The notes under the pieces were generated by a model, which was not told where the DNA came from, searched no databases, and saw only the letters and a program-made list of their open reading frames with translations. 32,000 bases of DNA from Ruminococcus albus 7 = DSM 20455 (GTDB lineage: Bacteria > Bacillota > Clostridia > Oscillospirales > Ruminococcaceae): contig NC_014833.1 of the NCBI RefSeq assembly GCF_000179635.2, positions 3,653,409 through 3,685,408 on the forward strand. Reading direction: 5' to 3'. Of the stretch, positions 5,265 through 24,341 are shown piece after piece (within the stretch, counting starts at the first letter, position 1; every line of letters begins with the position of its first letter). The position numbers and the translations under genes were made by a program.

Positions 5265-5765
5265 ATGAATACAATGACAGCAAACTATTTGTACAACCTT
5301 ATTTTTAACAACACAAAGTATGAGGGTGACGCTCACTTCCTCGGCAACAAGGCTTTTATTTCAAAAAATAATAAACTTGTGCAGATCGAGTTCTTAAAGG
5401 GCAACAAGATAGGAAACTTTAAGGAAGGTCTGAGAGATATTACTATCAAAATCAAACTCAAATCCATGTCAGCAAATGGCGAGGAAATCGAAACCTGCAT
5501 GAGTTTTTATGATGAAACAAATAAACTGTTTCTTGCTGATTTTAACGGTTTTGATGGCGTTGATCCGACAAAGGCTTATGATTGCATAGATGAAACTTTC
5601 TGTTTTGTAGGTGATATAAGCATGATTGCTAAATATGAGGACTTCCTCACAAATCTGCTTAATCCCAATGAAGTTAAGCCACTAAGGGCTAGGTCTGCCC
5701 TCCGCTTTTTCTTGCGTTGCATGGGCAAAAACATATCGTCTTTCCTAGACTTTATATTCGAGTGA
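5265..5765 (+). CDS. Hypothetical protein, 166 aa
   Basis: Clean ORF with its own promoter. No motif recognised. Confidence 0.65.
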   Translation: MNTMTANYLYNLIFNNTKYEGDAHFLGNKAFISKNNKLVQIEFLKGNKIGNFKEGLRDITIKIKLKSMSANGEEIETCMSFYDETNKLFLADFNGFDGVDPTKAYDCIDETFCFVGDISMIAKYEDFLTNLLNPNEVKPLRARSALRFFLRCMGKNISSFLDFIFE

Positions 5766-5903
5766 AAACATAGTAGAATAAATTGTAAACACGTTCATTT
5801 GAAGCAAAATGAGCGTGTTTTGTTTTACATAACCGCCTTTCGAGTGAAGCAGAGAGGACGAATTTATCAAAGGGAGGTAAAGTAACCGGTTATACGCTTA
5901 CAG

Positions 5904-5919
5904 TGTGTCTATAGACACA
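5904..5919. repeat. Palindrome copy A (16-bp core only)
   Basis: TGTGTCTATAGACACA is a perfect palindrome. Flanks are ACAG / GTTC, so there is no arm extension. Confidence 0.95.
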
Positions 5920-5929
5920 GTTCAGCAAC

Positions 5930-5975
5930 CAAAAAGCGTCCGGCACTCACCAAAAGGTGGTGTCAGACGCTTTGT
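5930..5975. terminator. Bidirectional intrinsic terminator, mainly serving the minus-strand genes 7691<-6031
   Basis: Long imperfect hairpin at 5935-5971 (AGCGTC...GACGCT outer stem, CACC-AAAA-GGTG tip), flanked by an A-run on the left and a T-run on the right. Confidence 0.65.
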
Positions 5976-6030
5976 ATTCTTATTAGCTTATTGGTTGAGG
6001 TATAATAGTCTGTGCAATTTAACCTCATAC

Positions 6031-6246
6031 TCACTGAGGATTATTAGGGTTGTTATTCTTGTTTTTGCCTTTGCCTATATTTCTTAGAATGATACCAATC
6101 AACATAAGTAAAAGTACTCCACAAATGATGAATACGCCTATAATTCCTTCAGTTATGAGTTTCGAATTTGGAAAATAGAGGTCTGCAATCACTACCAAAA
6201 ACGCTACTATTCCCAACGCCAAAATAAAATCTCCAAACTTCTTCAT
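6031..6246 (-). CDS. Small membrane protein, two predicted TM helices, 71 aa
   Basis: Hydrophobic stretches FILALGIVAFLVVIADL and IIGVFIICGVLLLMLIGIIL with a Lys/Asn-rich tail. RBS GGAGG upstream. Confidence 0.7.
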   Translation of the reverse strand: MKKFGDFILALGIVAFLVVIADLYFPNSKLITEGIIGVFIICGVLLLMLIGIILRNIGKGKNKNNNPNNPQ

Positions 6247-6275
6247 AAAATAACCTCCTAATTAATATCATTGTT

Positions 6276-7691
6276 TTACGGTATATTATCGCTCATTGGG
6301 TCAGGTATAAGTTGAGGTATATCATCGCTCTTCGTTGTTTTTACGCTTTTGGCAAATTCATAAAACCAACTATCTGCGCTTTCAAGTTCTTCATCGGATA
6401 TGCTTTCTTTGCCATCGCATGGTGCAACAGCAAACGAGAACATAGTATCCACAAAGTTTTCATCCATGCAATGCACGTCTATTAATGAATAACTTCCTCT
6501 CTTGCTCTCATTCTTATAGTCATGCATGGTGTTATCTCTTAATATAATAACTGCTCTGTTTCCATCTTTTTTGATAGTATATGTAAACAGTTTAGAATCT
6601 ATATGTCCAAAAAGACTTAAATCTCTTATTTCTTTTTCACAAAGATTTTTAAGATTATCATCTGTGTATTCCGTAAGGTCAAGCTCCTTTGCACTACCAC
6701 CGAGTTTGTGTATCGCATATCTCTGATCGTTCACTTCATATACGTAAGCACATTTCTCGTAGTTCATATATGCGGGAAGTTCATAGTTTATATCGAAACT
6801 GTAATCACTCATTTGATCCCAAGAGCAACTCGAGAAGCTTTTTATTTCCTCTGGTTTCGGAATATCTTCAAATGAACCGATATAATGTTTTGCCGAATTT
6901 AAATATTCGCTGTTAATCCAAATGTTCGATACAGTTTTAGTTTTAAGGTCTATTTTTACTTCATAATAATACCCGGTTCTGCTGTAAACACCCTCTTCTA
7001 ATTCTTTTTGGTATGATGTGATGCTGGAATCAAGAATATCATTATTTCCTTTTGGTTCAATATAAGCATCCGTCACCATATCCTTTATGTAAAAAAGAGT
7101 ATCCACATCTTCTAAATCGGGTTCGCCCCAAAGCTTGCGGACATCCTCTATCGGCATACCTACCTTTACTCCTTTTGGAAATACCACATCATTAATGTCT
7201 GATAATGAAATAACATTACAATCCGATAATAACTGCTTTTCATCTTTTGTTTTAGTGAAGAAAAAGCTTGTTTTAACATCATCGATAATAACATCATAAA
7301 TACTCGATTCTGCAATGACCGTCGATGGATCATCACCTTGGGTTATTCCATCATTCGCATCATCAGCAAGTTCTACACCGTCCATGTCAAACAGTTCCTT
7401 AGCCGTCATGGGCAATTTTATAACCTTTTCACCCACCTGAAACACATCAGTATACATATCCGCATTCAGTACTTCATCAGCTATCTTTGTTTCAGAATCG
7501 CTTTCATTCTCCGCGGCACTGTCATTATTTTGATTTTCTTCATTTCCACTTTTTTCGACTTCTGTTTTATCATTAGAAATTTTACTGGACTGTGTAACGA
7601 TTTTACTTTCGTTATCTGCATTTCCGCAGCCTGTGATACAGCCACAGATGCATACAGCCGTTATGAGTGATATTAATGCTTTTGTTTTCAT
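6276..7691 (-). CDS. Lipoprotein of unknown function (471 aa)
   Basis: Start moved to the ATG at 7691 (RBS AAGGAG). The N-terminus MKTKALISLITAVCICGCITGCGN is a signal peptide with a lipobox Cys. Confidence 0.8.
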   Translation of the reverse strand: MKTKALISLITAVCICGCITGCGNADNESKIVTQSSKISNDKTEVEKSGNEENQNNDSAAENESDSETKIADEVLNADMYTDVFQVGEKVIKLPMTAKELFDMDGVELADDANDGITQGDDPSTVIAESSIYDVIIDDVKTSFFFTKTKDEKQLLSDCNVISLSDINDVVFPKGVKVGMPIEDVRKLWGEPDLEDVDTLFYIKDMVTDAYIEPKGNNDILDSSITSYQKELEEGVYSRTGYYYEVKIDLKTKTVSNIWINSEYLNSAKHYIGSFEDIPKPEEIKSFSSCSWDQMSDYSFDINYELPAYMNYEKCAYVYEVNDQRYAIHKLGGSAKELDLTEYTDDNLKNLCEKEIRDLSLFGHIDSKLFTYTIKKDGNRAVIILRDNTMHDYKNESKRGSYSLIDVHCMDENFVDTMFSFAVAPCDGKESISDEELESADSWFYEFAKSVKTTKSDDIPQLIPDPMSDNIP

Positions 7692-8336: not shown

Positions 8337-8352
8337 TCTTTAAAAAGTATAC

Positions 8353-8368
8353 TGTGTCTATAGACACA
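8353..8368. repeat. Palindrome copy B (16-bp core; only the right flank is consensus-like, CTTT)
   Basis: TGTGTCTATAGACACA with flanks ATAC / CTTTTC. Confidence 0.95.
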
Positions 8369-8377
8369 CTTTTCAAG

Positions 8378-9571: not shown

Positions 9572-9598
9572 TTTTTTTCTTTTCTCTAGGATACTATA

Positions 9599-9620
9599 AA
9601 GTGTGTCTATAGACACACTT
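9599..9620. repeat. Palindrome copy C (22-bp perfect palindrome)
   Basis: AAGTGTGTCTATAGACACACTT. It is preceded by the T/C-rich block TTTTTTTCTTTTCTC (9572-9586). Confidence 0.95.
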
Positions 9621-9623
9621 CGA

Positions 9624-9672: not shown

Positions 9673-10806
9673 ATGAACAGATACAATATAATGCACAAGG
9701 ACAAGCTAGTTGCACAGGCTGAAGACAGCAGAGTTACTGCGGTCTTTGATAAGGCTCTATGCCCAAACAGTATTTTTGTAGATGCCGACCTTGAGGTGTG
9801 GCTAAAAAGCAGGAGTATCGATACTCATCGTTCTAATTCCCGCAGGCTTTACAAATTTCTTCGCATGAAAACTGATGCGGATATTGATGAGATAATCAAT
9901 ATCGGTCACGGTATAACAATTACAGATAACTGGTGGATACAGCGTGAGGACGAGATGCTTGACTATTCGTCGCTAAAACAGTATAATGAAGAGCTTGCTG
10001 ATATTTCCTTATACGGTTTTTCCAACAAGTGTAAAGATAAATCAAAAGGATACACTCAGCTTGGTACGATCGGAAGCTATGAAAAAGCATGGCGTTTTTC
10101 AGACGATGCATGGTATATGTACAAGTTGGGCAGTAAAACAGAACTTATCTCGGAATACTATGCGCACTGCTTTCTGAAAAAGTTGAATGTGAATTGTGCC
10201 GAGTACAAGGTTGAAAGACGTGTACTTGAAACGGGTCTTGAACAGGAATGTATCATAACCAAAGATTTTACGCAGAATGCGCTTTTCGATTTTGAACCAT
10301 TCTTCAATTATTTCAACGATAACGAAGATCCTGATTTCATACTGACAAGACTTGCTCAGATGGAAAAGAATAATACCATGTCGGGGCTTGTAGAGGATTA
10401 TGTTAAGATGTGCTATTATGATGCGCTTCTTATGAACGTTGACAGACACAATCTTAACGCAGGATTTCTCAGGGACAGCGAAAACGGAGGTATACTGTGT
10501 CTTGCTCCATGCTTTGATTATAATCTTTCGCTTTCCGCTGCCGTATCACTGCATTTTAGTGAAGATAAATCGGACCTCATGAAGTATTTCACCGAGAACG
10601 ATAGGCTCATGGAAGTCATGGATCCTCTTATGCCCGGGAGAGAAGAAATAATTTCTGCGGTCGAAACAGCAGAGAAAAAGACGAAATTAGCCTTTCCTAA
10701 TGACAATTTCAAATATTCGCTGTTCAGCGATTATGTTATTTCGGCTTATGACTATTGCGGTAAAATGATATCAAAAGAAAATAAAAACACCTATTCAAGA
10801 CGCTGA
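9673..10806 (+). CDS. HipA-like serine/threonine kinase domain protein (toxin-like), 377 aa
   Basis: The C-terminal half carries LLMNVDRHNLNAGFL ... LAPCFDYNLSL. This matches the HipA-family catalytic (D.H..N) and Mg-binding (AP.[FY]D) motifs from memory. Confidence 0.65.
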   Translation: MNRYNIMHKDKLVAQAEDSRVTAVFDKALCPNSIFVDADLEVWLKSRSIDTHRSNSRRLYKFLRMKTDADIDEIINIGHGITITDNWWIQREDEMLDYSSLKQYNEELADISLYGFSNKCKDKSKGYTQLGTIGSYEKAWRFSDDAWYMYKLGSKTELISEYYAHCFLKKLNVNCAEYKVERRVLETGLEQECIITKDFTQNALFDFEPFFNYFNDNEDPDFILTRLAQMEKNNTMSGLVEDYVKMCYYDALLMNVDRHNLNAGFLRDSENGGILCLAPCFDYNLSLSAAVSLHFSEDKSDLMKYFTENDRLMEVMDPLMPGREEIISAVETAEKKTKLAFPNDNFKYSLFSDYVISAYDYCGKMISKENKNTYSRR

Positions 10807-10825
10807 GCCTGAATAGGTGTTTTTT
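10783..10825 (+). terminator. Intrinsic terminator overlapping the 3' end of the HipA-like gene
   Basis: ACACCTATTCA (10787-10797), loop containing the TGA stop (10804-10806), TGAATAGGTGT (10810-10820), then TTTTT. Confidence 0.75.
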
Positions 10826-10844
10826 CTTTTCTCGCAGATAGTTC

Positions 10845-10868
10845 AAAGTGTGTCTATAGACACACTTT
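10845..10868. repeat. Palindrome copy D (24-bp perfect palindrome)
   Basis: AAAGTGTGTCTATAGACACACTTT. It is preceded by TTTTTCTTTTCTC (10821-10833) plus 11 nt. Confidence 0.95.
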
Positions 10869-10901
10869 AGAAAATGGGCTATTGTTTACAACTCAATATC
10901 T

Positions 10902-11273
10902 TCATCTACTTTTTTCTTGTTCTTTTAAATATCTCTTAATTGCGCTATCGACGAATGCTATAATAGCAGCATTCAAGTCTTCTGGGGTCTTTTCCAACTC
11001 TATATCTTCCGGGGTCGTAGGCTTTTTTCTATTTTCATACCAATAGCAGAACAAAGCTATTACACCGTTAATTTGTACATCAGAATAGTTTTCAAATTCC
11101 TTCTCAACATAAGATATTAAATCGTCAGTATCCTTGATTTTTTCTTGAGCAAAAGCATTGATATCTTCATTATTATCAATGATAATGTTATTTTCTTTTA
11201 AAAAATCCTGAAAATCATCGGGATTAATAGATGAAAAGTTCTTAGCAAAATTGTCAAATATACAATAATTCAT
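10902..11273 (-). CDS. Acidic hypothetical protein, 123 aa
   Basis: Own consensus promoter on the minus strand: TTGACA (plus-strand coordinates 11331-11336), 17 nt spacer, TATAAT (11308-11313). RBS AAGAGGTG. About 26 Asp+Glu versus about 14 Lys+Arg by hand count. Confidence 0.65.
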   Translation of the reverse strand: MNYCIFDNFAKNFSSINPDDFQDFLKENNIIIDNNEDINAFAQEKIKDTDDLISYVEKEFENYSDVQINGVIALFCYWYENRKKPTTPEDIELEKTPEDLNAAIIAFVDSAIKRYLKEQEKSR

Positions 11274-11357
11274 ATGGACACCTCTTATCTACAAATTAAT
11301 ATGATTAATTATATCAAAAACACACCATATTGTCAAGTCATATAAGAGTGTACTATC

Positions 11358-14144
11358 TTACTTCCCTTCCGTCAACTTCTGATACATCTTCATCAGCTCC
11401 GCCACACACTCACTCTCAGTCATGGTCTTGTAGTCAAAGCCGTATGCCTGCATCACAGCCTTATCGTTGAGTTGGTGAGCCTTTCGCAGTTCGGGTGGCA
11501 TAGTTGTTTCATCGTAGAGATCGGCAAGGGAGCAGTCGGGATATTTGGCTCTTGCATCGAGTATCATCTGTGCTGTTTTTTCTATGGTTGCTTTCTGTTT
11601 TTCATCGGGACTGCACCATGGGAAGTTATTGTAAACAATGTTTATTGAATAACTGTAATCACTTTTTAGTCTACCAGTTACAGCTCTCATCCAAGCCATG
11701 TGGACATTTGATGTCAACACTCCAAATTGATATTTGTTTGCGTCGGGAATCATAAATAGCTTGTCTCCCGCAATTATATCAGATCCTAAATATCCCATAG
11801 GGATATAACGCCTGTTTTCAGATGATACCTTTGGAAGGGCTATAAATGTTTTGGGATTCATAGTTTCCCTAAATAAAGTCGGAGTTGCTGCAAGTTTCTG
11901 TCGTCCTTTATCTGGGCTTTTTTCTCTTGCTTCTTTACAACATTGTACCCTTTTCTTTACGATAGGCATTTTATTCAATTCAGCAGGAGAAGCACCAACA
12001 AGCCAAAGGCAATATCTTGGTACGTTGTTAATAAACTCGTATCCCATCATAAATCGCTTTATATATTTTGACGATAATGGCTCTTTATTTATAAGCTCAT
12101 CAGCTTCATCTGGAGAAAGAATTAAATACCCTCCATCAGTTGGTCTATTGCCGGATAGCATTTTTGGAATATTACAAATGGCTTTAGTTCTACTTTCAAT
12201 AAAAACATCATTTGCAGCAACAAGATAAGCATTGATATTCTTTACTATTTGTTCAACACCATTATCAAATAGTCTCCTATCCACTTTGTTTTCCGCAATA
12301 CTAAATCCCACAATAACACAATGAACTTTGGCTTTCAGACTTGCTTCACTGTCCCAGCGGAAAGTTCGGTGTGCAAAGTCAATATGTATTCCGAAACGGT
12401 CATACAGTGGTTTCCACACACCTGCGACCTGTTCGCCCTGCGTTATACTGTTGGTAGAAACAAAAGCGGTTCTGATATTGGTGCCGACCATAAGCTGTGA
12501 AGCCTTGAAATACCATGCAGCAACATAATCTATCTTACCGGCGGTCTTGTACGGATTTCCCTTATCGTCAACATAAATGCACAGTATATCATTTTTCTGA
12601 CTTTTCGATTGCAGAGAATAACCAACAAATGGCGGATTGCCCATAATGTAAGACAGCTTGTCCTTTGGAACGACACTCTCCCAGTCGATGCGGAGAGAAT
12701 TGCCCTCGGTGATATTTGCATAGCTTTTCAACGGCAAAAAATCAAGGGTATACTGTATGATCTCCTCGGTTTCGTGCATCATCTGCGCTTCGGCTATCCA
12801 GAGGGCTGTTTTGGCAACAGTCACAGCAAAGTCGTTTATCTCAATGCCGTAAAATTGCCCGATACCGACCTTAATAGGGTTAAAGTCACCCTCGCCGCCT
12901 ATGAGCATCTGACCGCCGTGTATTACTTGCAGCGCTTCATTCTCCAATCGGCGCAGACTTATGTATGTTTCCGTAAGGAAGTTACCTGAACCGCAGGCAG
13001 GATCGAGGAACGTGAGTGAAGCTAGCTTATCTCTGAACTGCTCCAATTTCGCTTTTCTTGTTTTATCGACCTTAGTTTCGCATATCGTATTGAATTCTGC
13101 TTTCAGCTCATCGAGGAAAAGAGGGTCAATGACCTTGTGGATATTCTCGATAGAGGTATAGTGCATACCGCCTGAACGTCTTGTTTCGGGGTTCAGAGTG
13201 CTTTCAAATACTGCGCCGAAGATCGTCGGGCTGATCTCCGACCAGTCAAATCCTGCGCTTGCATTGTTCACAAGCAGATCCACGATTTCATCTGTAAAAC
13301 GCGGAATTTCGATGTTTTCATCGGCAAACAAGCCACCGTTCACATAAGGGAACGCAGCAAGGTCATCGTCCATATAGGGGTCACGATCTTCGGGTTTGGT
13401 GTCAAGAACCGTGAACAGCTCGATAAGTGCCTTGCGGATATCTTTTGCTTGAAACTGTTTCAGATACCGCCCGAACATTTCATGCTTGCCGAAAATGCCT
13501 GCATCTTCCGCATACAGGCAGAATACAAGCCTTACGCACAGCATATTTAGGCTTTTCAGCGTATCAGGACTATCAGGCTCCTTGTACTGTTTCAGGATAG
13601 CATCATACAGCTTACCAACAAGCTCACCTGCCTTCAAGGAAATTTCCATTTCCTTTTTCAGCATTTCGCTACCTGTTTCCACAAGGAATTGCAGACGGTA
13701 GTAGTCCTTTGCAAGGTCTTTCAAGAATATCTGCTCAGGCTCACCGTTGGGCTTTTCCATGTCGTAGACAAGGAATTCCTCGAAGTTGCAAGTCACTATC
13801 CATCGAGGGTGCTGCGATAACGGCAGCTCCGTCACATAACGCTTCGCTTGCTGGAACGGATTGAGCAAACTTCCGTCCGATTGCTTAATAGCCTTGCGTA
13901 AGTCTTTGCCGATAGACTTCTGTTCTATCATAACACGTGTGGACTTTATATAACCGTCAATAAATGATGTGTGATCCAGATGCACCTGATCTTCAAAAGT
14001 AATAAAGCCCATAGCATTTTCTATACCGTAAACGTGTTCAAGCAAGTCAGTCCAGAACTGCTGTGACTGTCCTTTTTCATAGCCTTTACCCTTCCAACGC
14101 TCGGCAAACTCCTTCGCTGCCTTTTTCTGTTCTTTTTCAGTCAT
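11358..14144 (-). CDS. MmeI-family Type IIL/IIG restriction-modification enzyme (fused nuclease, N6-adenine methyltransferase and specificity domain), 928 aa
   Basis: Start moved to the ATG at 14144 (MTEKEQKK). N-terminal PD-(D/E)xK-like FIDGYIKSTRVMIEQKS, AdoMet motif FLDPACGSGNFL, catalytic motif GNPPFVGY. Size and domain order match MmeI-like enzymes. Confidence 0.85.
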   Translation of the reverse strand: MTEKEQKKAAKEFAERWKGKGYEKGQSQQFWTDLLEHVYGIENAMGFITFEDQVHLDHTSFIDGYIKSTRVMIEQKSIGKDLRKAIKQSDGSLLNPFQQAKRYVTELPLSQHPRWIVTCNFEEFLVYDMEKPNGEPEQIFLKDLAKDYYRLQFLVETGSEMLKKEMEISLKAGELVGKLYDAILKQYKEPDSPDTLKSLNMLCVRLVFCLYAEDAGIFGKHEMFGRYLKQFQAKDIRKALIELFTVLDTKPEDRDPYMDDDLAAFPYVNGGLFADENIEIPRFTDEIVDLLVNNASAGFDWSEISPTIFGAVFESTLNPETRRSGGMHYTSIENIHKVIDPLFLDELKAEFNTICETKVDKTRKAKLEQFRDKLASLTFLDPACGSGNFLTETYISLRRLENEALQVIHGGQMLIGGEGDFNPIKVGIGQFYGIEINDFAVTVAKTALWIAEAQMMHETEEIIQYTLDFLPLKSYANITEGNSLRIDWESVVPKDKLSYIMGNPPFVGYSLQSKSQKNDILCIYVDDKGNPYKTAGKIDYVAAWYFKASQLMVGTNIRTAFVSTNSITQGEQVAGVWKPLYDRFGIHIDFAHRTFRWDSEASLKAKVHCVIVGFSIAENKVDRRLFDNGVEQIVKNINAYLVAANDVFIESRTKAICNIPKMLSGNRPTDGGYLILSPDEADELINKEPLSSKYIKRFMMGYEFINNVPRYCLWLVGASPAELNKMPIVKKRVQCCKEAREKSPDKGRQKLAATPTLFRETMNPKTFIALPKVSSENRRYIPMGYLGSDIIAGDKLFMIPDANKYQFGVLTSNVHMAWMRAVTGRLKSDYSYSINIVYNNFPWCSPDEKQKATIEKTAQMILDARAKYPDCSLADLYDETTMPPELRKAHQLNDKAVMQAYGFDYKTMTESECVAELMKMYQKLTEGK

Positions 14145-14248
14145 AGTAATACCCCCATGAATGGAATGATTATCACCATACATTATATCATATTTTCTTG
14201 AATGGTTCAACTGAAATTACATAATTTTGATATTTTTATAAAAGGCAC

Positions 14249-15437: not shown

Positions 15438-16010
15438 GTGAGAATATCAGATTTACATTTTTCAGATGAAACAGAGTTATCATATTCGGCAATAACTCCG
15501 TATTTATTTAAAAAGGAAAATGAAAACGGAGCAGCTGAATATAATGAATTAGTGAAAGCACTTATCAAAAATGCTGCTGACACAGATGATTTTGTAGCTA
15601 GTTATCTTGATGAAGCAACTGCTGTAAAACATAATTATTACAAGTCCGAATGTTACCAGATCATGCTAAAAATATATGACAACAATAAAGCTAAAGAATA
15701 CTGCCGTAAAATGCTCGGAAGAAAATCGAGAACTACAATATCTGATGCAGAATCACTAAAAATTGGAAATGAAAACTCTGTGATGTATATTCCTTCTTTA
15801 GGCACAAGCACATATACACGTTATGCAATATTAGAAAAAAATGAATTTTACGCCGATAACATTATGACTCATATGTTATCATTTGAAGGTACCAAGTTTA
15901 ATATCTATCTGCAAGACAAAGGAGAAGAAAATAAAATTGACAAAGTATTGGATAACGGCAAATATAGTGTATATTCATTCGATGGGATAATGGCACTAGT
16001 AAAAGAATAA
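15438..16010 (+). CDS. Hypothetical protein, 190 aa (GTG start)
   Basis: The GTG at 15438 lies 8 nt after the strong RBS AAGGAGG and 19 nt after the preceding stop, so it is probably co-transcribed. Confidence 0.6.
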   Translation: MRISDLHFSDETELSYSAITPYLFKKENENGAAEYNELVKALIKNAADTDDFVASYLDEATAVKHNYYKSECYQIMLKIYDNNKAKEYCRKMLGRKSRTTISDAESLKIGNENSVMYIPSLGTSTYTRYAILEKNEFYADNIMTHMLSFEGTKFNIYLQDKGEENKIDKVLDNGKYSVYSFDGIMALVKE

Positions 16011-16024
16011 AAAAGCATCAAAAA

Positions 16025-16064
16025 AGCACTCATTCAAAATTTAATCATGAAAGAGTGCTTTTTT
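16025..16064 (+). terminator. Intrinsic terminator
   Basis: AGCACTCATTCA (16025-16036), loop, TGAAAGAGTGCT (16048-16059, one mismatch), then a T-run. Confidence 0.7.
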
Positions 16065-16122
16065 AAGAAATCATTCGTACTGTAAATTCACATAAAATAC
16101 GATTCTTTTTCTCCTGGACAAT

Positions 16123-16148
16123 TAAAGTGTGTCTATAGACACACTTTA
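16123..16148. repeat. Palindrome copy E (26-bp perfect palindrome), overlapping the integrase stop codon
   Basis: TAAAGTGTGTCTATAGACACACTTTA. The integrase stop codon (TAA on the minus strand) occupies 16146-16148. Confidence 0.95.
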
Positions 16149-17120
16149 GTAAATCTCATCAAGCTTTGTCATCGCAGTCTTTTTTTGCTCCTCTATGACA
16201 TGATAATAGAACTTCATCGTTATCGAAATATCAGAATGACCTAGGATCTCGGAAACGACCTTAATATCAGTTCCTTGTCTGAGCAGCAGCGTTGCAAATG
16301 TATGACGCAGCGCGTGAACAATGTCTTTCTTCCCGTTAATTCCGCAGTTTTTAAGTATACGCGACATAGTGCGATGAATAGCACTTGGATCAACTAACAG
16401 ACCATTCTCCGTGGTGACTATCCTATCATTATCTCCCATTATAGCGTGTATCTTTACTAAAGCATCAAGTGCTGTTTTATTGAGTGGAACATAACGAACA
16501 GAATTTCGTGATTTGGGAGAATTTACTATCTTTTCATACTTCATGCTGCTGTCCCCTCTTGTTTTTACCGACGAAACGCTGTTATGTACGTAAACTATTT
16601 TATTTGTAAAATCTACATCAGACCAACTAAGTGCAAGAGCCTCCCCAACACGCAGACCGGTATTTAGCATAAACACGATGAAATAACCGTACCTATACTT
16701 AAAACTGCCATTATTATAAGTTGAAATAGCTTCGGCAGCAATCGCCCTCGCCTGTTCGGGAGAGTAATATACTACCGTTTCATCAGATTTATTATTTTTG
16801 GGAAGAACAACCGATAGTATAGGATTCTTCTTTATATCCCCTTTTAAAACCGCAAGGTCAAGACAACTCTTCAGATTAACGTATGCTTTTTTGGTAGTAC
16901 TATAAGAAGAACGTTCTGAAAGATTATTCAACATCATTTGAATATCATCAGCAGTCAGTTTCTTTAACTTTATTTTGCCTATAGCCGGGAAGATCTGATA
17001 ATTTAGGCTCTGTTCTACCCTATCATACGAAGAACGCTTTAATGATGGGCGTTTAGTATTAATAAGCCATTTTGTCATGTACTCCTCGACTGTGTTGTTG
17101 CTCTGTTTCTCGAATAACAT
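16146..17120 (-). CDS. Tyrosine site-specific recombinase / integrase, 324 aa
   Basis: Start moved to the ATG at 17120 (RBS GGAGGA). N-terminal SAM-like core-binding domain. Catalytic motifs TGLRVGEALAL (Arg I), HALRHTFAT (H-x-x-R) and LGHSDISITMKFYYH (His/Tyr). Confidence 0.9.
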   Translation of the reverse strand: MLFEKQSNNTVEEYMTKWLINTKRPSLKRSSYDRVEQSLNYQIFPAIGKIKLKKLTADDIQMMLNNLSERSSYSTTKKAYVNLKSCLDLAVLKGDIKKNPILSVVLPKNNKSDETVVYYSPEQARAIAAEAISTYNNGSFKYRYGYFIVFMLNTGLRVGEALALSWSDVDFTNKIVYVHNSVSSVKTRGDSSMKYEKIVNSPKSRNSVRYVPLNKTALDALVKIHAIMGDNDRIVTTENGLLVDPSAIHRTMSRILKNCGINGKKDIVHALRHTFATLLLRQGTDIKVVSEILGHSDISITMKFYYHVIEEQKKTAMTKLDEIY

Positions 17121-17170
17121 TAAAAATATCCTCCAAAGTATGTATTCCTGTGCAAAAACGCACAAGAAAT

Positions 17171-17199
17171 ATAATACCAAAAAGAGGATAACACGTCAA
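17171..17199 (-). promoter_or_regulatory. Probable integrase promoter
   Basis: On the minus strand: TTGACG (plus-strand coordinates 17194-17199), 17 nt spacer, TATTAT (17171-17176). Confidence 0.5.
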
Positions 17200-17299
17200 T
17201 AAATTATATAAAAATACACATCTGATATATCAATATATATATCAGCGAGAAAAAGAACAAACAAATTAAAATTTATTCAAAATTATTTTTTGAAAAGGC

Positions 17300-17328
17300 T
17301 TGACAAATAAAAAACGATGTGCTATAAT
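17300..17328 (+). promoter_or_regulatory. Near-perfect sigma-A promoter firing into ORF-free sequence
   Basis: TTGACA (17300-17305), 17 nt spacer ending in TGC (extended -10), TATAAT (17323-17328). Confidence 0.65.
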
Positions 17329-17334
17329 ACATAT

Positions 17335-18049
17335 AGTGGGCTAGAACAACAAAACACCCACCTGTGGCTTAAATGAACGCCAATTCAAGTAAGCCATCAG
17401 CACAAATGCTCGGCTAAAGCAGATGTGAGACTTTTACAGATGGATGCATCAATGTCCATGTTATCTATTATAGCATGGTTTTGATATATTTGTCAAGGAG
17501 TTTTCAGTATGCTTTTGCGAGTAGTGCTGAGAACTCTTTTCTTTTTCCCGTAAGACTTACGGATCCTACGGCTGACTCCAGTTGAACTGAATAGCCAGAG
17601 AGAGAAAGTAACCTCGACGAGACCTCAATAACTGCTGAATCATTCAGCTGCATTGAAACAGTTTGCATTTGCAAGCCTGCCTAATGGCAGCTACCTCAAT
17701 GTACGCCGTGACCACTTAGTGACAGTAAGTGCAGCGAGTATAAACACTGTGGTGTGAGCTACCGGGGAGGTAATCGGGAAGTCATGGTCTGTATCGACTA
17801 TGCAAAGGGCGCAGCCGACAGCAAGGTGTATTTGCTAAAAGAGTTTGTCACTCTTCAGAATACACTGATGACTAGGCGATCTAAATGATCTGCGTCAAAA
17901 GGAAAACTTTCAAGGCAATCAAAAAAAGTTATTTCCGCTCTGCAACAGCGGTGATAATATAAAACCAACAGGCTGGTATAGCAGTACCGCTTGTTGGCAC
18001 AAATTCACTGAAACCAATGGACTTGTGCCAGCAAGTGAATTGCATACAC
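17335..18049 (+). ncRNA. Candidate large structured non-coding RNA (about 0.7 kb); class unverified, boundaries approximate
   Basis: The supplied track has no ORF of 60 aa or more on either strand between 17181 and 18413. A consensus promoter lies upstream. Many local hairpins are visible: 17548-17562, 17634-17648, 17677-17690, 17935-17951 and a 13-bp stem at 17965-17997. Interleaved pairings 17996-18002/18023-18029 and 18002-18009/18034-18041 have pseudoknot topology. Confidence 0.55.
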
Positions 18050-18065
18050 TGTGTCTATAGACACA
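18050..18065. repeat. Palindrome copy F (16-bp core; right flank CTTTAG as in D and E) at the element/chromosome junction
   Basis: TGTGTCTATAGACACA with flanks ACAC / CTTTAG. It lies 10 nt from the U-tract of the rrn-tRNA operon terminator. Confidence 0.95.
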
Positions 18066-18075
18066 CTTTAGATAT

Positions 18076-18110
18076 GAAAAGCCCCCGCAAGGGAATTTCT
18101 TCCCTCACGG
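18076..18110 (-). terminator. Intrinsic terminator of the rRNA-tRNA operon
   Basis: Minus-strand RNA CCGUGAGGGA-AGAAAU-UCCCUUGCGG (two G-U pairs), followed by GGGCUUUUC. Confidence 0.75.
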
Positions 18111-18116
18111 AGATAG

Positions 18117-18189
18117 CAGGGGCACCAAGGATCGAACTCGGGACACGCGGTTTTGGAGACCGCTGCTCTACCAGCTGAGCTATACCCCT
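18117..18189 (-). tRNA. tRNA-Trp (anticodon CCA)
   Basis: Hand-folded cloverleaf, 73 nt: acceptor AGGGGTA/TGCCCCT, anticodon loop CTCCAAA, T-loop TTCGATC, discriminator G. No encoded CCA. Confidence 0.93.
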
Positions 18190-18198
18190 AAAAAGAAA

Positions 18199-18272
18199 TG
18201 GACCATCAGGGACTCGAACCCCGGACCCACCGGTTATGAGCCGGTTGCTCTGACCAACTGAGCTAATGGTCC
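18199..18272 (-). tRNA. tRNA with anticodon CAT, elongator type (Met, or lysidine-modified Ile2; not resolvable by eye)
   Basis: 74 nt. Acceptor GGACCAT/ATGGTCC, anticodon arm ACCGG-CTCATAA-CCGGT. It lacks the three G:C pairs typical of initiator tRNA. Confidence 0.9.
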
Positions 18273-18322
18273 ATGTACAAAAAAACGCAAACTGAAGAAA
18301 CAGCTTGCGGTCTTGGGAAATA

Positions 18323-18394
18323 TGACCCGTGGGAGAATCGAACTCCCGTCGCCGGCGTGAGAGGCCGGAGTCTTAACCGCTTGACCAACGGGCC
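18323..18394 (-). tRNA. tRNA-Glu (anticodon CTC)
   Basis: 72 nt. GGCCCGTTGGTCAAGCGGTTAAGAC... is the typical Firmicutes tRNA-Glu body. Anticodon loop CTCTCAC. Confidence 0.92.
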
Positions 18395-18421
18395 TTGACG
18401 CTGGTTTTCAGCGTTATAAAG

Positions 18422-18494: not shown

Positions 18495-18529
18495 ATAGAC
18501 CAAAACACTCCGAAGAGTGTTTTGGGAGA

Positions 18530-18645
18530 GCCGGCGACAACTTATTTTCCCGGGCGGTCGCCCGCCGAGTATTTTCAGCGAAGATGAGCTTAACTTCTGT
18601 GTTCGGCATGGGAACAGGTGTGACCTCATCTCAATGATCACCGAC
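18530..18645 (-). rRNA. rrf: 5S ribosomal RNA
   Basis: The minus strand reads GTCGGTGATCATTGAGATGAGGTCACACCTGTTCCCATGCCGAACACAGAAGTTAAGC...GTCGCCGGC, which contains conserved 5S motifs. The terminal helix pairs. Confidence 0.95.
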
Positions 18646-18712: not shown

Positions 18713-21548
<2,836 letters not shown>

Positions 21549-22042: not shown

Positions 22043-23556
<1,514 letters not shown>

Positions 23557-23769
23557 GTTGTATCCTAATACTCTTCTCAGAGTAATTATGATCTCAGTTT
23601 CGTTTCACTGAACGTTTGTACATTTTCTTAGTCTTGTACTTGACTCCGATGAATTTATTCATCGTCAATACTTCAATCACTCAAAGTATTTTCAAGGGTT
23701 TTCGTATTCTTGGTTGTTCAATTTTCAAGATGCCTTTTCGTTGTCTGTCTTTTGTCAGACAACTCATTT

Positions 23770-24170
23770 ATTATACCACACTTTTCTTCATTTGTCAACC
23801 CCTTTTCAGAAGTTTTTTGAAGATTTTTTTCATCTCTTTTTCAGAGATTTTTGTGTGTTATAAGCTTTTCTATTATACCACATTTTTCTTCGTTTGTCAA
23901 GTCTTTTTCAGAACTTTTTTGAAGCTTTTTTCTGAGCAGTTCTTTTTTACTGAACTTTTCTCTCGTGCGGTACTTTTTATTATATCACATTTTCTCGCTT
24001 TTGTCAAGACCTTTTGTGATATTTTTTTCTGCCTTTTTTCAAGTTCGCTTTTTCTGAACTACTCCCCCGCTCGTTCTCTTATCCCTAAGTTTCCTGCGGT
24101 TTTTCGCTCTTTTCGCTCGCTCTCTCGTTGACAGCTTAATTATTATACCTCGTTTTGCCTCAAAAGTCAA
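23770..24170 (-). promoter_or_regulatory. Four tandem rRNA promoters (P1-P4)
   Basis: On the minus strand there are four -35/17-nt/-10 units. Plus-strand coordinates, -10/-35: 23770-75/23793-98 (TTGACA-TATAAT), 23872-77/23895-900 (TTGACA-TATAAT), 23979-84/24002-07 (TTGACA-TATAAT), 24142-47/24165-70 (TTGACT-TATAAT). Each sits behind A-tract-rich, UP-element-like sequence. Confidence 0.7.
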
Positions 24171-24341
24171 CCCCTTTTTCGACTTTTATTTTAAACAAAC
24201 AGTTAATATTTCGCGAAAATTTTCCTTTATTTCTACTTTATATTGTTCAGCTTATTTGAACTTAATTTTATACTGGCTATTATTGATAATTAGCTTAATT
24301 TTGCTTTAATTAAAATTATGCAATTAGCTATTTCAAACTAC

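Follow-up and report, generated by a model that had tools for sequence, protein, structure and literature searches.

A gap without a recognisable protein-coding gene separates a tyrosine integrase gene from a tRNA-Trp gene in the 32,000-nt stretch of Ruminococcus albus 7 DNA analysed here (contig NC_014833.1, positions 3,653,409 to 3,685,408; called the window below, with all positions counted from its first letter). A sequence-only reading of the gap had proposed a large structured RNA of about 0.7 kb. Its conserved, structured and noncoding character was borne out by comparison with homologous loci, but not its unity as one uniform RNA, since a perfect promoter on the minus strand (17496-17467) and a strong, conserved terminator (17495-17546), both overlooked in that reading, split it in two. 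The first part, unit A (17329..17547, plus strand), holds hairpins, the convergent promoter and the terminator; the second, unit B (17548..about 18045, plus strand), was delimited by an RNAalifold consensus and the alignment of homologues. B is a candidate for an apparently undescribed large structured RNA, which would be carried on a conjugative element together with an unusual built-in control unit.

As had been noted, no open reading frame (ORF) of at least 60 aa lies in 17181-18413, the longest being 56 aa (17504-17674, minus) and 53 aa (18017-18178, plus), and the gap is GC-richer than its neighbours (0.45 for 17501-18000 versus 0.33-0.37 for 16001-17500), with low-GC mobile DNA to its left. 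The plus strand folds to -69.5 kcal/mol over 17335-17550 (z = -5.1 against shuffled sequences) and to -165.7 kcal/mol over 17548-18070 (z = -4.5), and the reverse strands of the two regions also fold well (z = -3.2 and -5.8). Among the hairpins pointed out earlier, those at 17336/17361, 17634/17648, 17677/17690 and 17965/17997 covary in homologues and pair counts give partial support to the one in the 3′ part (17935-39/17947-51, plus strand), whereas the one at 17548-17562 gives way to a conserved form that pairs 17548-17555 with 17564-17571.

Homologous loci (designated by L numbers) were gathered from contigs encoding integrase homologues and by scanning genomes and metagenomes for an invariant 18-20-mer. 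The module formed by A and B was found in 17 loci at identities to the window from 97% down to about 66%; these include R. albus AR67 (two copies), R. albus 8 and several metagenome-assembled genomes, and all named ones are Ruminococcus, the others being metagenome (rumen or gut) or read-assembly contigs. Compensatory changes among these homologues, the check that the sequence-only reading had suggested, support the helices of both units.

Unit A combines convergent promoters with a conserved terminator

The promoter TTGACA-17-TGcTATAAT, already recognised as pointing into the gap, matches the sigma-70 consensus at 12/12 positions and has an extended -10 (P(+), 17300..17328, plus strand); transcription from it would start near 17335. 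The promoter scan also returned a second perfect extended -10 promoter, convergent with the first (P(-), 17467..17496, minus strand), with a predicted start near 17460, so that two 12/12 extended -10 promoters stand 197 bp apart. Perfect TTGACA-N16-18-TATAAT sites are a real feature of this genome: the 32-kb window contains 11 of them versus 0.04 expected, three lying upstream of the 16S gene. Most homologous loci have a perfect or near-perfect P(+) in the corresponding position, none being seen in L007, and the P(-) site matches 11-12 of the 12 consensus positions in all homologous loci scanned for it. Both promoters and the terminator of A are kept down to loci whose integrases are only 52-58% identical.

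On the plus strand, the minimum free energy (MFE) fold and covariation agree on three successive hairpins (H1, 17336-17361; H2, 17362-17400; H3, 17401-17427), followed by a compound hairpin (17439-17494), whose inner stem-loop in the fold (17456-17478) displays the -10 of P(-) in its loop, and by an intrinsic terminator made of a hairpin of about 20 bp (17495-17539) and a U-tract (UUUUCUUUUU) running to 17546. RNAalifold on MAFFT alignments missed the variable hairpins of A, and a covariance-model alignment of the 17 loci was used instead; in that alignment, which was fitted to the fold of the window and so leans towards structure, 88.5% of cells are standard pairs versus 38-43% with slid partners, and 34 of 68 pairs are changed on both sides versus 10-19 in slid controls, a level reached by none of 500 shuffles. 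The unfitted MAFFT alignment gave 84% paired cells versus 37-42%. All ten pairs of the upper stem of H2 are compensated, 12 of 19 terminator pairs covary, and the outer helix around the P(-) -10 hairpin shows G-U to A-U changes that are readable on the plus strand only.

The predicted P(-) RNA is antisense to about 125 nt of A, covering H3, H2 and H1, and then continues towards the integrase; in L007 it heads for cargo genes. A 20-codon ORF at the 5′ end of this antisense RNA was considered as a peptide gene and dismissed, because homologues differ in it almost solely by nonsynonymous changes.

Unit B is a multi-helix noncoding domain

The RNAalifold consensus of 13 sequences gives B 90 pairs in 17 helices, long-range ones included, with compensatory changes at 40 of the 90. 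Its core (17548..17911, plus strand) was delimited by this consensus and by pair counts with controls. After P1 (17548-55/17564-71), a closing helix, P2 (17600-04/17907-11), surrounds two sub-domains. The first (17613-17778) contains P3 (17613-16/17775-78), P4 (17623-25/17765-67), P5 (17649-55/17697-703), P6 (17661-66/17671-76), P7 (17677-81/17686-90), P8 (17707-09/17734-36) and P9 (17713-18/17726-31). P12 (17783-89/17796-802), P13 (17808-12/17892-96), P14 (17814-16/17875-77), P15 (17825-33/17858-66) and P16 (17878-81/17887-90) make up the second (17783-17896). The longest invariant block between helices in the alignment is a 23-mer (AGCGAGTATAAACACTGTGGTGT, 17733-17755, plus strand).

Standard pairs fill 94.3% of the cells of B versus 33-40% when partners are slid, both-side changes affect 40 of 90 pairs versus 6-11 in slid controls, and the covariation score is 0.31 versus at most 0.076; none of 500 shuffles reached the observed values, although the contrast with the controls is inflated because the structure was predicted from the same alignment. 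The replacements can also be read directly from variants of four helices. P2 occurs as GAGAG/CTTTC, GAATG/CATTC, AAACA/TGTTT and AATGA/TCATT, P4 as CCT/GGG, CCT/AGG, CGT/ACG and CAC/GTG, and P13 as GGCGC/GCGTC, GGTAC/GTATC and GACAC/GTGTC, while P14 forms the series GCC/GGC, GCC/GGT, ACC/GGT, which on the plus strand amounts to G-C, G-U and A-U. G-U pairs take up about 13% of the pair cells.

A conserved small coding frame, which would have explained the conservation without an RNA, was looked for. B is noncoding, because insertions and deletions ignore the frame (1 of 39 has a length divisible by three) and no reading frame persists among homologues; changes in the sole recurrent small ORF are almost only nonsynonymous. 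The scattered ORFs of 30-56 aa in the region are what a decayed protein gene might leave behind, and some structure can arise by chance, yet both explanations are contradicted by 17 loci with structure-preserving changes, by frame-blind indels and by the lack of any kept frame, and we consider them extremely improbable.

The plus strand is favoured for unit B

The reverse complement of B gave an RNAalifold consensus of -66.7 kcal/mol versus -70.4 kcal/mol for the plus strand, with different long-range helices and G-U pairs of its own. About 30 cells are changed on both sides in the long-range helices of the plus strand versus about nine in the minus-strand alternatives, partly from the poorly aligned L009, and the well-supported P13 is incompatible with the best minus-strand helix. 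Deciding the strand from G-U counts alone was tried and given up, RNAalifold returning G-U-rich alternatives on both strands. We favour the plus strand for B, a preference short of proof, because the comparison of long-range helices, the orientation of P(+) and the terminator, and the G-U pattern in A all point to it.

DNA hairpins predict compensatory changes as well as RNA hairpins do, and B might fold as single-stranded DNA instead, acting as a single-strand origin or priming site in rolling-circle replication or on entry into a recipient. Integrative conjugative elements (ICEs) such as ICEBs1 and Tn916 transfer single strands and carry single-strand origins; both strands of the B region fold better than shuffles, and a sequence without a dedicated promoter or terminator would suit a DNA element. 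We nevertheless find this unlikely. About 13% of the cells are G-U, including near-constant G-U pairs inside short helices, which would be weak as G-T in DNA, and a conserved consensus promoter is directed into the module. Known single-strand origins are long single hairpins, whereas B is multi-branched with long-range closing helices, and blastn found no similarity to it in plasmid or phage collections, among them 72,556 plasmids that include rolling-circle ones.

The module has a narrow distribution and its parts are separable

The distribution of the module is narrow. Scanning 185,579 species representatives yielded seven module loci (plus two chance matches), and metagenomes yielded five contigs. 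Collections of phages (50,697) and plasmids (72,556) gave no blastn match (word size 11, E up to 0.01), and in IMG/VR neither the integrase scan nor the 20-mer scan had a match. Two scans of IMG/VR with shorter motifs returned 142 loci, all of which were chance by nhmmer, one group being a phage protein gene.

In every locus with the flank available, the module lies directly against the 3′ end of a convergent tRNA gene, always oriented towards the tRNA and the attachment site. The tRNA is mostly tRNA-Trp; it is tRNA-Asn in L016 and L021 (after a 5S gene) and tRNA-Leu in L009. Guide-like complementarity between module and target tRNA was looked for and discarded, only chance-level 7-8-mers being found, with no tracking of tRNA identity.

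Searches with nhmmer and a covariance model showed that the parts of the module are separable. L007 has A, a different middle of about 200 nt (10035-10240) and only the last 150 nt or so of B, adjoining tRNA-Trp; L023 (1-250) has A plus a middle resembling that of L007; and in L172 A lies downstream of the integrase and is followed by yet another sequence (1897-2131). The non-B sequences after A in L007, L023 and L172 have no Rfam match; the type found in L007 and L023 and the one in L172 may be additional RNA payloads that have not been described. In L016, about 400 nt (780-1190) are inserted between the A terminator and B; the insert contains an ORF of 94 aa (887-1171, minus) with no Pfam match. 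On this evidence A is a portable promoter/antisense promoter/terminator unit and the B core one of several payloads, while the hairpins of 17912-18045 go with the attachment site.

The sequence-only reading had left open a new RNA class linked to a tyrosine recombinase. Co-location at the end of an ICE holds, but a strict partnership does not, and the link is loose. The module occurs without an integrase in L014 and L013, and in L022 an integrase 62% identical stands beside a module 92% identical, homology starting at about 17251. Among the integrase homologues sampled, four more distant ones (P0014, P0051, P0103 and P0007) have no module in the DNA retrieved around them, and these integrases sit within rows of genes on the same strand. 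Two module copies are decayed: in L014 (1-1766, R. albus 8) the module adjoins a dockerin-type gene fragment and there is no integrase, and in L013 (4598-6350) a truncated type IV secretion coupling protein gene and a zeta-toxin-like fragment adjoin a 5′-truncated B. B is still 87-88% identical in both.

The dockerin fragment beside the L014 copy and the left boundary shared by L022 raised the thought that the module is a host gene. This is less parsimonious, and we rejected it because module and integrase diverge together, because the two module copies of R. albus AR67, 82% alike, each have their own integrase, and because of the junction in L011 described below.

The 3′ part of B borders the attachment site

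The 3′ part of B (17912..18045, plus strand; pair counts, homologues) adjoins the attachment site and is kept in L007, which is without the B core. It contains P17 (17965-73/17989-97) and an alternative 14-bp hairpin (17989-18002/18023-18036), both on the plus strand and both supported by covariation. The segment GCTTGTTGG (17989-97) can thus pair with either CCAACAGGC (17965-73) or CCAGCAAGT (18028-36), and both pairings covary; the 14-bp hairpin unites the GCTTGTTGG/CCAGCAAGT pairing with GGCACAA/TTGTGCC, a stem kept with altered sequence in homologues. These alternatives may reflect either a switch in the RNA or repeats in the DNA next to the attachment site. The pseudoknot that had been suggested for this end found no comparative support, the partner of AATTCACT (AGTGAATT) being missing outside the R. 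albus group.

Hairpins in a long attP arm could also be DNA sites for proteins, such as integrase arm sites, excisionase sites or repressor operators, with paired half-sites producing what looks like covariation. The last 100 nt or so (17950-18045) adjoin the attachment block, are kept where the B core is absent (L007), and hold the direct and inverted repeats CCAACAGGC, GCTTGTTGG and CCAGCAAGT, which covary with one another; for this segment only is the idea plausible. It fails for nested helices that span 150-340 nt and occur in three or four complementary versions, and it leaves an attP arm of about 800 bp unexplained. As an account of the module we judge it very unlikely.

A palindrome copy follows B (about 18045..18069; repeat search, no strand assigned) and is not a constant part of the module. 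The statement that the structured region ends exactly at such a copy holds for some lineages; L012 has no copy there, and in L004 it is elsewhere, between the integrase and P(+). The 25-nt perfect palindrome AAAGTGTGTCTATAGACACACTTT has six copies in the window (5896-5923, 8345-8372, 9594-9621, 10841-10868, 16120-16147 and 18042-18069), which bracket ICE cargo blocks and the block of integrase plus RNA. A copy also stands after the integrase stop codon in every related locus for which that flank was retrieved. The palindrome might serve as an operator, as a recombination site or as a weak terminator active in both directions.

The attachment core consists of the last 46 nt at the 3′ end of tRNA-Trp, which reach into the anticodon loop at about 18160. 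L011 (R. albus AR67, NZ_FOKQ01000035.1, 4940-7800) has the module and the rRNA-operon terminator and then only these 46 nt; beyond them come parA (5357-6154) and parB (6158-7054), on the same strand as P(+), and another palindrome copy. The stretch from B to parA in L011 yielded no terminator on the plus strand. This looks like an attP site or a junction between tandem ICEs, and the junction places A and B inside the element. The ICE far end joined in L011 also has an outward-facing 11/12 promoter (5152-5124, minus), directed back towards the tRNA half and B. The window and L012 share an unchanged terminator and tRNA but a B of only about 82% identity, which fits an attP/attB identity block that reaches to about 18070 and includes the terminator of the rRNA operon.

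Genomic setting of the module

The module lies in mobile DNA beside tRNA genes, as the sequence-only reading had proposed, with an integrase, ICE cargo and tRNA-Trp at the boundary. The tyrosine integrase (16146..17120, minus strand) was identified from its translation, its homologues and its Pfam domains (Phage_integrase, Phage_int_SAM_3 and Phage_int_M); an exact look-up of its sequence returned no record. Its ORF extends to 17180; the likely true start is the ATG at 17120, which is preceded by GGAGG and gives 324 aa. A likely integrase promoter (TTGACG-17-TATTAT, 17199-17171, minus) came from the promoter scan. The interval from this promoter to where the module begins on the left (about 17251) contains an inverted repeat, CTGATATAT-N6-ATATATCAG (17222-17246), which is not conserved in L012.

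Cargo in the window includes an MmeI-type restriction-modification gene, a HipA-like gene, a topoisomerase gene and a gene for an HTH_36/DnaD-like replication-type protein. Type IV secretion coupling protein genes are present in the elements of integrase relatives, and the island is therefore taken to be an ICE; consistent with this, the integrase stands by a tRNA gene, the 3′ part of a tRNA lies at the other junction in L011, and relatives have conjugation genes. The ICE continues past the left edge of the window, its far end lying outside; its oriT and relaxase gene lie beyond both the window and the retrieved loci. Near the integrase, ICEs of this family (window 9673-14210; L007, L024 and L026-L029) repeatedly contain MmeI-type restriction-modification genes, HipA-like kinases, Fic proteins and HEPN/nucleotidyltransferase pairs, which looks like a defence or toxin zone.

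On the other side of the gap, Rfam and ARAGORN identified a complete rRNA operon on the minus strand. In operon order it comprises 16S rRNA (22046-23556), tRNA-Ala and tRNA-Ile between 16S and 23S, 23S rRNA (18713-21548), 5S rRNA (18529-18645) and a cluster of tRNA-Lys, tRNA-Glu, tRNA-Met and tRNA-Trp, whose last member, tRNA-Trp (18116..18189), brings the operon to its end at 18116. The terminator scan placed the intrinsic terminator of the operon at 18082..18113 (minus); it is functional on that strand only, because its G-U pairs are mismatches on the plus strand. The 16S gene is preceded, at 23769-24201, by four tandem units of about 61 nt, three of which contain a perfect TTGACA-N17-TATAAT on the minus strand, forming a stacked rRNA promoter array.

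An outward-reading RNA module as the proposed explanation

Taken together, these features can be read as a noncoding RNA module in two parts, situated at the end of a Ruminococcus ICE that holds the integrase and adjoins the tRNA, an antisense-gated leader followed by a large structured RNA and read outward; we hold this explanation with moderate confidence, about evenly balanced between right and wrong. P(+) would yield a structured RNA of about 210 nt that mostly stops at the A terminator. The P(-) transcript, complementary to the first three hairpins, would set passage through the terminator by RNA pairing and polymerase collision, and the same pairing and collision would set how much P(-) transcription reaches the integrase side. 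Read-through RNA would carry B as a multi-helix domain of about 370-500 nt. In the integrated element such a transcript would run out against the rRNA operon; after excision it would cross attP into a partition or transfer operon (parA/parB). The module would in this way couple excision state to gene expression, with B as a folded leader or as a released stable RNA.

Several points weigh against this explanation. The promoters, transcription starts and termination are predicted throughout, the covariation signal comes from only about seven independent lineages, and the similar consensus energy of the minus strand weakens the strand call. The terminator is strong and conserved, and the main P(+) product may therefore be the RNA of about 210 nt alone. 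Inspection of the MFE and centroid folds of A revealed no conserved antiterminator pairing with the terminator arms. On the antisense side, the window scan detected no minus-strand terminator-like site between 17460 and the integrase, and by eye no U-run follows the complement of H1 in the window or L004, so that no discrete short antisense RNA is apparent; L022 has a terminator between P(-) and the integrase. The L011 junction is a single case and could reflect a tandem array instead of a circle. Finally, a leader of 400-500 nt with invariant unpaired blocks exceeds the needs of any known attenuator.

B may instead be an undescribed large ornate RNA class with its own activity in the life cycle of the element and not a passive leader, a possibility that we advance tentatively. 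Its part might be that of a scaffold or a ribozyme, working at the attachment site, in the priming of replication or in transfer, or it might self-assemble like ROOL and GOLLD; A would then be a dedicated antisense-controlled switch that drives other undescribed payloads in L007/L023 and L172.

The main rival to the outward-reading module, which we consider less likely, makes B an independent large RNA that acts in trans, in a structural or catalytic role, and travels as cargo in the manner of ROOL and GOLLD, A providing only its promoter and regulation and attP being irrelevant. The size of B, its many helices, the closing helix round two sub-domains and its long invariant unpaired blocks (the 23-mer at 17733-17755) suit such an RNA, as do the mobile DNA by tRNAs in a rumen Firmicute, a context known for ROOL and GOLLD, the exchange of B for other sequences after A in L007/L023 and L172, and the identity of 87-88% that B retains in the decayed L013 and L014. 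A free-standing RNA is at odds with the strong terminator between P(+) and B, with the few genomes that carry B (seven loci among the 185,579 species representatives, five metagenome contigs) and with the lack of similarity to any Rfam large RNA. It is also at odds with the absence from the window of a plus-strand 3′ terminator and of a strong promoter of its own, and the missing promoter counts against the outward-reading module too. Candidate promoters for B after the A terminator in L004, L007 and L009 matched 8/12 by eye, below the scan threshold, and were not called.

To our knowledge, the structured RNAs of several hundred nt that have been described from bacteria without an assigned function number only about a dozen, and each merited experimental study. 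The genetic address of the present candidate is clear: it stands at one end of a conjugative element, by its attachment site and behind a predicted antisense-controlled terminator, and is aimed across the excision junction. If the outward-reading module is real, it would show that a Gram-positive ICE can detect its own excision by a new RNA-based means; if B acts alone, it would be an additional new RNA class. Unit A for its part would be a portable convergent-promoter switch with different noncoding payloads across lineages.

Comparison with known RNAs and control systems

The suggestion that the gap encodes a ROOL or GOLLD RNA was not upheld. No family of Rfam 15 (ROOL, GOLLD, OLE, raiA, HEARO and all others) matches the module or any other part of the gap in a search of the whole window at the gathering threshold. 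Nor was any family found in region 17100-18150 at E up to 10, or in the module of L004, L016, L021, L009, L012, L023, L172 or L007 at E up to 1; the searches drew only junk in the module (microRNA models and a terminator-like match to a ctRNA model, E = 0.44). The module may therefore represent a new large RNA class, the fallback that had been offered, shorn of a firm tie to the recombinase. A literature search found no description of the module, which is no proof that none exists. The ROOL and GOLLD classes comprise large ornate RNAs that Firmicutes often carry close to tRNAs on prophage-like DNA. B resembles them in its hundreds of nucleotides, its many helices and its place in mobile DNA by tRNA genes of a rumen Firmicute, a likeness of context and size only; the ROOL-type context is found here at ICE ends by tRNA-Trp, Asn or Leu in Ruminococcus, and context alone confers no membership. 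In contrast to ROOL and GOLLD, B stands behind a dedicated promoter/antisense/terminator unit and was found only at Ruminococcus ICE ends.

The arrangement of P(+), H1-H3 and P(-) followed by a long folded RNA recalls RNA II of ColE1, a folded RNA of about 550 nt whose 5′ 110 nt or so, with three stem-loops, are targeted by RNA I from a convergent promoter. Here, however, a conserved intrinsic terminator interrupts the layout and there is no evidence of an origin at the 3′ end; ColE1 is moreover enterobacterial, and the plasmid collection gave no sequence match.

Antisense attenuation of a comparable kind operates in pT181, pAMbeta1 and the prgQ/Anti-Q system of pCF10. In the repR leader of pIP501, an antisense RNA (RNAIII) from a convergent promoter induces attenuation (PMC4981023). 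Like unit A, that leader has sense and convergent antisense promoters, stem-loops in the overlap and a terminator downstream, on a conjugative Firmicute element (PMC4981023); convergent promoters and a terminator past the overlap, as in the pIP501/pT181 type, are predicted for A. The systems differ in what follows the terminator, here the noncoding B and not a rep or transfer gene, with parA/parB only across attP. They also differ in that neither a discrete antisense terminator nor, on inspection of the folds, an alternative antiterminator fold was found in A, whose antisense RNA seems to enter the integrase or cargo genes.

Circularisation-dependent expression is known from Pcirc of ICEclc. 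Likewise, Tn916 expresses its transfer genes only once it has circularised, which brings them, at one end, under promoters from the opposite end (PMC9632896). The Ruminococcus module would share this principle, P(+) facing outward to attR and the L011 junction putting parA/parB downstream. It departs from Tn916 in the roughly 700 nt of conserved folded RNA and the terminator that lie between promoter and junction, through which read-through is predicted.

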